From Escherichia coli (GTDB lineage Bacteria; Pseudomonadota; Gammaproteobacteria; Enterobacterales; Enterobacteriaceae): a DNA stretch of 64,000 nucleotides. The stretch lies in the NCBI RefSeq assembly GCF_022846255.1, contig NZ_AP025682.1. One strand, 5' to 3'. Below are positions 14,137 to 14,952 of the stretch, one piece after another. The first letter of the stretch is position 1; every line of letters starts with the position of its first letter. Both the position numbers and the translations under genes were made by a program. The notes under the pieces were generated by a model. It saw only the letters and a list, made by a program, of their open reading frames with translations, searched no databases and had not been told where the DNA came from.

Positions 14137-14167
14137 AAAACGGGAGGTGAAGGTGCCTCCCGTTTTT
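14137..14167. terminator. bidirectional rho-independent terminator (envZ on +, TA cassette on -)
   Basis: cgggaggtgaaggtgcctcccg hairpin followed by TTTTT on + strand and T-rich run on - strand. Confidence 0.7.
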
Positions 14168-14462
14168 AGATTGTTTTCAATTGATTGATAATGAAAGGAT
14201 TCGCTTGCAAAAGCAGGAGCAATTTTCGGGGTGCTCCGGTAGGCTGACGGCGTTTGGTTTCCCAGCTTTTGACCAGGTCATAACTTACCCCTACGGCGAC
14301 AGCAAAATCTTGCTGACGTAAACCCGTTGCTTCACGGATCGCTTTTACATCGATTTCGCTAAAAGTATGGACGTGCTCTGGTTCAGGCGTTTCTTCACCC
14401 TTTTCGATGCGTACCATTTCTTCTGCGCTGGCAAGAAGATCAGCAAATAATTCATCTTTCAT
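14166..14462 (-). CDS. putative antitoxin, XRE-family helix-turn-helix protein
   Basis: 98-aa ORF, ATG at 14462 with GGAGG upstream; HTH-like segment GLRQQDFAVAVGVSYDLVKSWETKRRQP; lies downstream of a RelE/ParE-like ORF. Confidence 0.7.
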   Translation of the reverse strand: MKDELFADLLASAEEMVRIEKGEETPEPEHVHTFSEIDVKAIREATGLRQQDFAVAVGVSYDLVKSWETKRRQPTGAPRKLLLLLQANPFIINQLKTI

Positions 14463-14520
14463 CTGTTTTCAATGCCTCCGTTGACATTTCGGCCATGGTG
14501 GAATTTGTGGAGCTTCAACA

Positions 14521-14838
14521 TTAAAGCAGCTTCTCGGACAATAGTTTCAATGCCTTTCTTTGTTCTTCTGTTAAATCATCCTGTTCATTTTTAGGATAAA
14601 TCAACGCCAGATAAATTCGGCCATTGCGTGTTACGTTGTAATAAATTATCCGAATGCCACCCCGTTTCCCCATTCCAGAACGGTTCCAGCGAATTTTTCT
14701 AAAACTGCCTGTGCCTGCGATAATGTCACCGGCAGTGGGATCTTGAATGAGTAGTTCCTGAAAAGCCCGGAACTCATCATCAGGTAGCAATAACTGGCGG
14801 CGTTTGCTAAATCCTTGTAGTTCAATAAAGGTGAACAT
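14521..14838 (-). CDS. putative type II toxin, RelE/ParE superfamily (HigB-like, toxin-first arrangement)
   Basis: 105-aa ORF, ATG at 14838 with AGGA 7 nt upstream; motif GKRGGIRIIYY...IYLALIYPKNEQDDLT typical of RelE-like mRNA interferases; paired with the downstream HTH ORF. Confidence 0.65.
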   Translation of the reverse strand: MFTFIELQGFSKRRQLLLPDDEFRAFQELLIQDPTAGDIIAGTGSFRKIRWNRSGMGKRGGIRIIYYNVTRNGRIYLALIYPKNEQDDLTEEQRKALKLLSEKLL

Positions 14839-14902
14839 AATGCATCCTGCGGTCTATTGATAATTATAAGTGTACCGTGTACATATTGGTAGCTAATTAG
14901 AT
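14839..14902 (-). promoter_or_regulatory. putative promoter/operator of the TA cassette
   Basis: Perfect TATAAT on minus strand about 24 nt upstream of toxin ATG; tandem GTACAC-g-GTACAC repeat immediately upstream. Confidence 0.4.
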
Positions 14903-14934
14903 AAAAAAACCCCTTATCCGTTTGGATAAGGGGT
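14903..14934 (-). terminator. rho-independent terminator of pck
   Basis: ccccttatcc / ggataagggg perfect hairpin followed by T7 on minus strand, 19 nt after pck stop. Confidence 0.75.
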
Positions 14935-14952
14935 CAATGAGATATCAGCTGA

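Follow-up and report, generated by a model that had tools for sequence, protein, structure and literature searches.

The window analysed here, a stretch of 64,000 nucleotides of the Escherichia coli chromosome, has ompR-envZ encoded by its plus strand and pckA by its minus strand, and a two-gene cassette with the organization of a toxin-antitoxin (TA) module is located between pckA and envZ. The features of the cassette and its surroundings are given below in window coordinates, in the order in which they follow pckA:

14167-14951, minus strand: strain-variable inserted segment of about 785 bp, which holds a terminator hairpin, the predicted promoter/operator, the toxin gene and the antitoxin gene
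14903-14935, minus strand: intrinsic-terminator-like hairpin with a T7 run (12-bp stem at 14935-14908, T7 at 14909-14903)
14886-14892, minus strand: position expected for a -35 element (TACCAA with a 17-nt spacing, CTACCA with 18 nt; poor match)
14870-14884: predicted operator A-TGTAC-acg-GTACA-C, a 15-bp palindrome (arms at 14883-14879 and 14875-14871, spacer at 14878-14876)
14882-14877 and 14875-14870, minus strand: GTACAC units with a g between them at 14876, a direct repeat in this allele only
14868-14863, minus strand: predicted -10 hexamer TATAAT, assigned from the sequence and from relatives; the t at 14869 separates it from the palindrome
14854-14858, minus strand: predicted transcription start zone, 5-9 nt past the -10 by standard sigma-70 geometry
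14848-14845, minus strand: Shine-Dalgarno AGGA, 6 nt 5' of the toxin ATG
14521-14838, minus strand: toxin gene, 105 aa, HigB2-type member of the RelE/ParE superfamily, annotated as RelE/ParE family toxin WP_000493756.1
14463-14520, minus strand: untranslated gap of 58 nt between the toxin stop and the antitoxin start
14166-14462, minus strand: antitoxin gene, 98 aa, NadS family and HigA2-like, annotated as nadS in RefSeq
14137-14166, both strands: bidirectional terminator hairpin serving the cassette (minus) and envZ (plus), which follows pckA in cassette-free strains

Both genes are on the minus strand, the toxin gene first, with 58 nt between them, and RefSeq annotates the same pair. The toxin matched the V. 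cholerae HigB-2 chains over residues 3-100 (phmmer, E 1e-23), and its score against the Pfam RelE model PF06296 was borderline (27.6 bits, cutoff 27). For the antitoxin, a score of 75.1 bits was obtained with the NCBIfam NadS model NF041265 (cutoff 60), together with a match to PDB HigA-2 over residues 4-91 (E 5e-5). When its AF2 model (pLDDT 87) was compared with known structures by Foldseek, the best matches were those of HigA2 (5jaa, 8a0x and 5j9i), with an rmsd of 1.9 Å for the C-terminal domain; the C-terminal domain of MqsA (3fmy) was matched with a TMt of 0.78. Its layout is that of a HigA2 homologue, with the toxin-binding segment at the N-terminus and an XRE helix-turn-helix (HTH) domain at the C-terminus. 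Assignment to the MqsA family, which is marked by an N-terminal CxxC zinc domain and a TIGR03830 score above cutoff, was not supported: the antitoxin holds no cysteine in its 98 residues and reached 31.1 bits against TIGR03830 (cutoff 61.8), through the C-terminal HTH only. The YiaG model gave 65.5 bits (cutoff 110). By gene order, toxin family and antitoxin architecture, the cassette was classified as a HigBA2-type TA module, for which growth inhibition by the toxin and its neutralisation by the antitoxin are predicted functions.

The antitoxin was much more conserved than the toxin across genera, with 95% versus 81% identity in Citrobacter and 94% versus 76-83% in others; in type II modules the usual pattern is the reverse. 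Orphan nadS genes were frequent (L012, L024-26, L056 and L058). The sequence of the 58-nt gap was not conserved among the chromosomal relatives, and in plasmid relatives the toxin and antitoxin genes overlap or are 4-5 nt apart.

Of the 5426 complete E. coli genomes, 1324-1330 (~24%) have the cassette, always between pckA and envZ, and the same site is occupied by the cassette in E. albertii, Citrobacter and Kluyvera. In the comparison of this site among loci (including L005, L006, L015, L022 and L032), Pluralibacter (L032) was seen to retain only an orphan antitoxin gene, without the palindrome, and Kluyvera sichuanensis (L022) to carry an internally deleted toxin gene with the promoter, palindrome and antitoxin kept. 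A cassette-bearing record of 4.8 Mb found in the plasmid collection (NZ_OL790696.1, H96) is clearly a misplaced E. coli chromosome. When the window was aligned with the empty sites of strain S88 (L002) and of a K-12 derivative (L003), the inserted segment was found to replace 45 bp of the pckA-envZ intergenic region, and no target-site duplication was evident against these two sites. In both of them, 45 nt separate pckA from the bidirectional terminator that it has in common with envZ.

The hairpin downstream of pckA had been described in the original prediction as the pck terminator, which should keep pck transcripts from reading into the cassette. A strong terminator-like hairpin does follow pckA: it starts 17 nt past the stop codon (14955-14953), its stem contains 6 GC pairs and closes on a 4-nt loop, and it folds at -21.8 kcal/mol (z = -5.8 versus shuffles). 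A GC-rich stem, a T-run and a position after a stop codon are the features of a predicted rho-independent terminator, and three weak sub-threshold Rfam matches lay over the hairpin, with no family at threshold. The hairpin is conserved where the cassette follows pckA in E. albertii, Citrobacter and Kluyvera. Its origin, however, had to be revised. The region 14903-14951 is missing from the empty sites (L002 648-700, L003 449-500), so an ancestral pckA terminator was rejected and the hairpin must have arrived with the cassette. Located now at the 3' end of pckA, it plausibly insulates the cassette from pckA transcription.

Upstream of the toxin gene, the order of elements on the minus strand is GGGGTTTTTTTATCTAATTAGCTACCAATAT-GTACAC-G-GTACAC-T-TATAAT-tatcaatagaccgcAGGAtgcatt-ATG. 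The base-by-base reading thus agreed with the earlier description of a TATAAT about 24 nt 5' of the toxin start next to a GTACAC-g-GTACAC repeat; the interval between the hexamer and the ATG (14838-14836) is 24 nt (14862-14839). The element TGTAC-acg-GTACA (14883-14871) ends 2 nt short of TATAAT. At the Shine-Dalgarno position, CAGGA or CAGGGA was kept in relatives. No acceptable -35 was found, with 2/6 matches for TACCAA and 3/6 for CTACCA, and the TG of an extended -10 is absent at TATAAT. Because the -35 fails, no sigma-70 promoter was called at this site by the consensus scan, so that the promoter is assigned from its perfect -10 and from its position in comparison with relatives. The 13-mer GTACACNGTACAC was found once in the window when up to one mismatch was allowed, against 0.07 expected (at least one in 7 of 100 shuffles). 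The bare core GTAC-N3-GTAC also occurred once, against 0.36 expected (at least one in 33 of 100 shuffles), which is not significant alone. Hence, the window by itself could not establish significance, and this was supplied by the homologous loci. A repeat search of the window listed only the terminator stem and AT-rich palindromes, the short repeat being below the reporting length.

For this comparison, 80 chromosomal loci with antitoxin relatives were retrieved by peptide patterns including [VI]KSWE..RR. A toxin gene was located upstream in 55 of these, with toxin identities of 39-100%. GTAC-N3-GTAC was present within 130 nt 5' of the toxin start in every one of the 55 homologous cassettes, and 85 sites were counted in 7,150 nt of upstream sequence (~12 per kb) against none in the other 219,008 nt of the same loci. 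From the 80 unique sites a family consensus R-TGTAC-N3-GTACA-Y was derived, in which the 5' flank was R in 76 and T in 67 sites, and the 3' flank A in 66 and Y in 79. The spacer was found in 36 different 3-nt versions and carried 0.02-0.2 bit per position. Mirror-symmetric flanks around an uninformative spacer are the signature of a site for a dimeric protein. At the syntenic position, Citrobacter and Kluyvera have TGTACtctGTACA, TGTACtccGTACA, TGTACcagGTACA and TGTACcaaGTACA, and among non-deleted alleles of E. coli, Citrobacter and Kluyvera the palindrome was invariant and the spacer varied. Full 5-bp complementary arms were found in 59 of the 80 unique sites, and the 6-mer was directly repeated in 8.

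These results indicated that the conserved unit is the palindrome R-TGTAC-N3-GTACA-Y, given its symmetric conservation and the rarity of the 6-mer repeat. The tandem GTACAC repeat, which had been put forward as the functional unit, was accordingly discarded in that role; it looks like a direct repeat since GTAC reads the same on both strands and the free spacer is, by coincidence, ACG here. Where the toxin gene is internally deleted (L022, L014, L035 and L048), palindrome, promoter and antitoxin are all retained, which speaks for the operator. Upstream of some orphan nadS genes (L012, L024-26 and L032) the palindrome is missing.

Furthermore, the position of the palindrome relative to the predicted promoter was fixed. 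Of 24 Enterobacterales-type loci, 22 have a TAnnnT hexamer whose start is exactly 1 nt past the proximal palindrome, and in loci of this type TTGAnn lies about 17 nt 5' of that hexamer. A second palindrome is placed 29-31 bp upstream in 18 of the 24, so that the two sites bracket the -35. The pckA-linked cassettes, this window included, carry the proximal site only, with the terminator hairpin at the place of the distal site, and combine a weak -35 with a perfect or near-perfect -10. The Oceanospirillales-type relatives have a pair of palindromes, spaced by 21-24 bp, on either side of the -10. That the geometry stays fixed in unrelated genomic contexts is the strongest reason to regard TATAAT as a real -10 and the palindrome as an operator, and from it TATAAT is taken to be the probable active -10 of the cassette promoter. 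In Siccibacter turicensis (L040) the distal palindrome, about 76 nt 5' of the toxin start, has longer arms (GGCGTAC-agg-GTACGCC) with A5 and T6 on its two sides, and therefore doubles as a terminator-like hairpin.

As to the protein that reads the palindrome, the antitoxin is the sole DNA-binding protein encoded in the cassette. All 55 chromosomal loci share its recognition helix, G-x-S-x-(D/E)-x-(V/I)-K-S-W-E-x-x-R-R, an invariance that was rejected as independent evidence; it is partly circular, an effect of ascertainment, because the retrieval pattern contained the helix. Plasmid relatives found through the toxin, together with V. cholerae, were used instead as a test set of helix and operator, about 8 systems beyond the chromosomal set and about 9 in all, with the following pairs of recognition helix and promoter palindrome:

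K/RSWE..RR, chromosomal family and L096: GTAC-N3-GTAC
RSWE..RR: TAGTAC-N3-GTACTA, in two copies
RNWE, Pseudomonas plasmid: TACGCC-N3-GGCGTA
QSWE, Klebsiella plasmid: TCCTAC-N3-GTAGGA
LNWE, Acetobacter plasmid: ATACGTC-N3-GACGTAT
QNWE, Ralstonia: ACTATACGC-N5-GCGTATAGT
QNWE, Salmonella plasmid: TATCCCCA-N3-TGGGGATA
ENWE, V. cholerae: TGTACGC-N5-GCGTACA (PMC11006873)

The promoter palindrome differed wherever the recognition helix differed, which supports the antitoxin as the reader. We infer that the antitoxin is the binding protein and that its binding represses.

Comparison with known systems pointed in the same direction. Among characterised proteins, HigA2 of V. cholerae is the nearest to this antitoxin; its dimer recognises a palindrome in its promoter, and the footprint starts after the -35 and covers the -10 (PMC11006873); PDB entry 8a0x holds the HigB2-HigA2 tetramer on operator DNA. 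The V. cholerae higBA2 module resembles the E. coli cassette in its toxin-first order, its PF06296-type toxin, and an antitoxin with an N-terminal toxin-binding region and a dimerising C-terminal XRE HTH (PMC11006873; 5j9i, 5jaa, 8a0x). In both, a single palindrome is located between the -35 and the -10 (predicted elements in the E. coli cassette) and reaches toward the -10, and the outer half-site bases TGTAC...GTACA are in common. Nevertheless, the E. coli palindrome does not have the sequence and spacing of the V. cholerae operator, which spans 19 bp with 7-bp arms, an N5 spacer and a contacted inner ACGC, whereas the arms here are of 5 bp, the spacer is N3 and the whole covers 13-15 bp. 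The HigA2 contact residues also differ in the E. coli antitoxin (R68 to D, E71 to K and N72 to S, with R77 retained; identity ~26%). A transfer of the V. cholerae base contacts was therefore rejected, three of the four contact residues and the half-site spacing being different.

The geometry of 5-bp arms around an uninformative 3-nt spacer is instead that of E. coli MqsA, whose operator is 5'-AACCT-N3-AGGTT-3' (PMC4894380). Two such sites per promoter are common there, as in most relatives of the cassette, and the MqsA HTH is related to that of the antitoxin, as judged from the partial TIGR03830 match and the Foldseek match to 3fmy. MqsA differs in its half-site, in its N-terminal zinc-binding domain and in its toxin, which is MqsR rather than HigB2-like. 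The higBA2 module of an A. baumannii plasmid belongs to the same toxin and antitoxin families, and its antitoxin is annotated as NadS on related plasmids; HigA2 of A. baumannii represses its own promoter with the toxin as co-repressor (PMC5906591). It differs from the present cassette in being plasmid-borne, in its QNWE helix and in a TACGCC-att-GACGTA-like palindrome, the operator being unmapped in that study (PMC5906591). The relE-yiaG modules and K-12 YiaG share a YiaG/NadS-type HTH antitoxin, a PF06296 toxin and an HTH modelled as a HigA2-like dimer (PMC11980606). An extended toxin N-terminus found in relE-yiaG modules is missing from the E. coli cassette toxin, and operators were outside the scope of that work (PMC11980606). 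E. coli K-12, which lacks the cassette, has an orphan homologue, YiaG (PMC11980606), and a small PGAP-annotated 'nadS' (RS26030) whose expression by PIRT-seq is reported (PMC12350097); cross-talk of these with GTAC-type operators is conceivable.

Taken together, the 15-bp palindrome is probably an operator in the cassette's own promoter, at which an antitoxin dimer would bind and repress the TA operon. In the proposed mechanism, the dimer, either alone or as a toxin-antitoxin complex, would place one HTH on each TGTAC half-site and keep RNA polymerase off the -10 region, so that the TA operon would repress itself, and the hairpin and T-run that travel with the cassette would insulate it against pckA transcription. 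Against the operator stand the poor -35, the lack of a promoter call, the presence of a single palindrome where most enterobacterial relatives have two, the orphan nadS genes that have no such site and the three altered HigA2 contact residues; the ascertainment in the chromosomal set likewise limits the weight of the helix. The autoregulatory operator anticipated in the original prediction is nonetheless very likely on comparative grounds: none of the 55 homologous cassettes lacks the palindrome, which sits at a constant place directly next to the -10, and the V. cholerae HigA2 palindrome is footprinted at the same place (PMC11006873).

Other explanations of the element were considered. The two head-to-tail GTACAC half-sites could form a tandem operator on which antitoxin subunits are bound in the same orientation. 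Some type II antitoxins use direct repeats, and the allele in this window has two exact copies of the 6-mer, offset by 7 bp. The mirror-symmetric flanks, the predominance of complementary arms over 6-mer repeats (59 versus 8 of the 80 sites) and the Citrobacter and Kluyvera sequences make this arrangement highly improbable, and the XRE-HTH relatives HigA2 and MqsA bind palindromes as symmetric dimers. That a short repeat and a TATAAT were paired by chance in an AT-rich intergenic region, with no function, would accord with the missing -35 and with the 0.36 copies of the core expected per window, but every one of the 55 homologous loci carries the motif, with an upstream density of about 12 sites per kb against none in 219 kb elsewhere, which leaves this explanation a negligible probability.

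The palindrome could also be the site of a host factor, or the recombination or insertion site of a mobile cassette: recombinases often target palindromes, and the cassette varies between strains and occupies the same pckA-envZ site in several genera. This explanation is very improbable, given that the palindrome lies on the promoter side only, that its 1-nt offset from the -10 is kept in unrelated contexts and on plasmids, and that its sequence changes with the recognition helix of the antitoxin. Moreover, no recombinase was linked to the chromosomal cassettes and no copy of the palindrome was found at the insertion junctions. Finally, the complementary arms could act as an RNA hairpin affecting the stability or translation of the toxin mRNA, in a transcript started upstream or read through from pckA, and in the Oceanospirillales-type loci the proximal palindrome comes as close as about 20 nt to the start codon, in the vicinity of the Shine-Dalgarno. 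Yet the arms are invariant, with no compensatory changes, and a hairpin of 5 bp closed by a 3-nt loop has little stability; in the Enterobacterales the site lies upstream of the predicted -10 and is preceded by a strong terminator, and no Rfam family was found at threshold. Such a role is extremely unlikely.

Autorepression of HigBA2-type operons through a palindrome at the -10 is already known, and the general picture of type II TA autoregulation is unchanged by the proposed operator. This cassette and its subfamily consensus appear to be undescribed in the literature searched, in which nothing was found on the cassette, on RTGTAC-N3-GTACAY or on the origin of the name NadS. The analysis offers this consensus as a testable operator for a widespread, unstudied chromosomal HigBA2/NadS branch, carried by about a quarter of E. 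coli genomes and by many other Enterobacterales, and the tracking of the half-site with the recognition helix could help to predict the specificity of HTH antitoxins.

Additionally, a natural deletion allele of the element was detected. In the alignment of E. coli alleles, exactly one 7-bp unit is lost (ATAT[GTACACG]GTACACTTATAAT to ATATGTACACTTATAAT), and with it one arm of the palindrome. The deletion was found in ~107-108 of ~1330 cassette-bearing genomes, including CFT073, Nissle 1917, ABU 83972, ATCC 25922 and E2348/69; A13 and FCI1 are also among the strains with the deletion (deletion loci L084, L085 and L090-L093). All five sampled members of the large deletion group carry D21K and a stop at E22 in the toxin, with an antitoxin protein identical to that of the intact allele, and in E2348/69 the toxin has a frameshift in addition to these two changes. 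Strain FCI1 combines the deletion with an intact toxin, and its flanking SNPs match the non-deleted allele of MSHS133. This different SNP background suggests that the 7-bp unit was lost at least twice independently. The direct repeat, though not the functional unit, is thus a real slippage substrate and a deletion hotspot.

If the deletion derepresses the promoter, an orphan NadS would be expressed constitutively in CFT073, Nissle 1917 and their kin. The further idea that the ACG spacer makes the operator a slippage-prone genetic switch, and that the deletion lineage constitutively expresses an orphan NadS regulator, perhaps as an anti-addiction factor or co-opted for other genes, is speculative and considered unlikely. 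The occurrence of the deletion allele in heavily used strains provides a ready-made mutant for the study of autoregulation, and this is the most useful by-product of the analysis.
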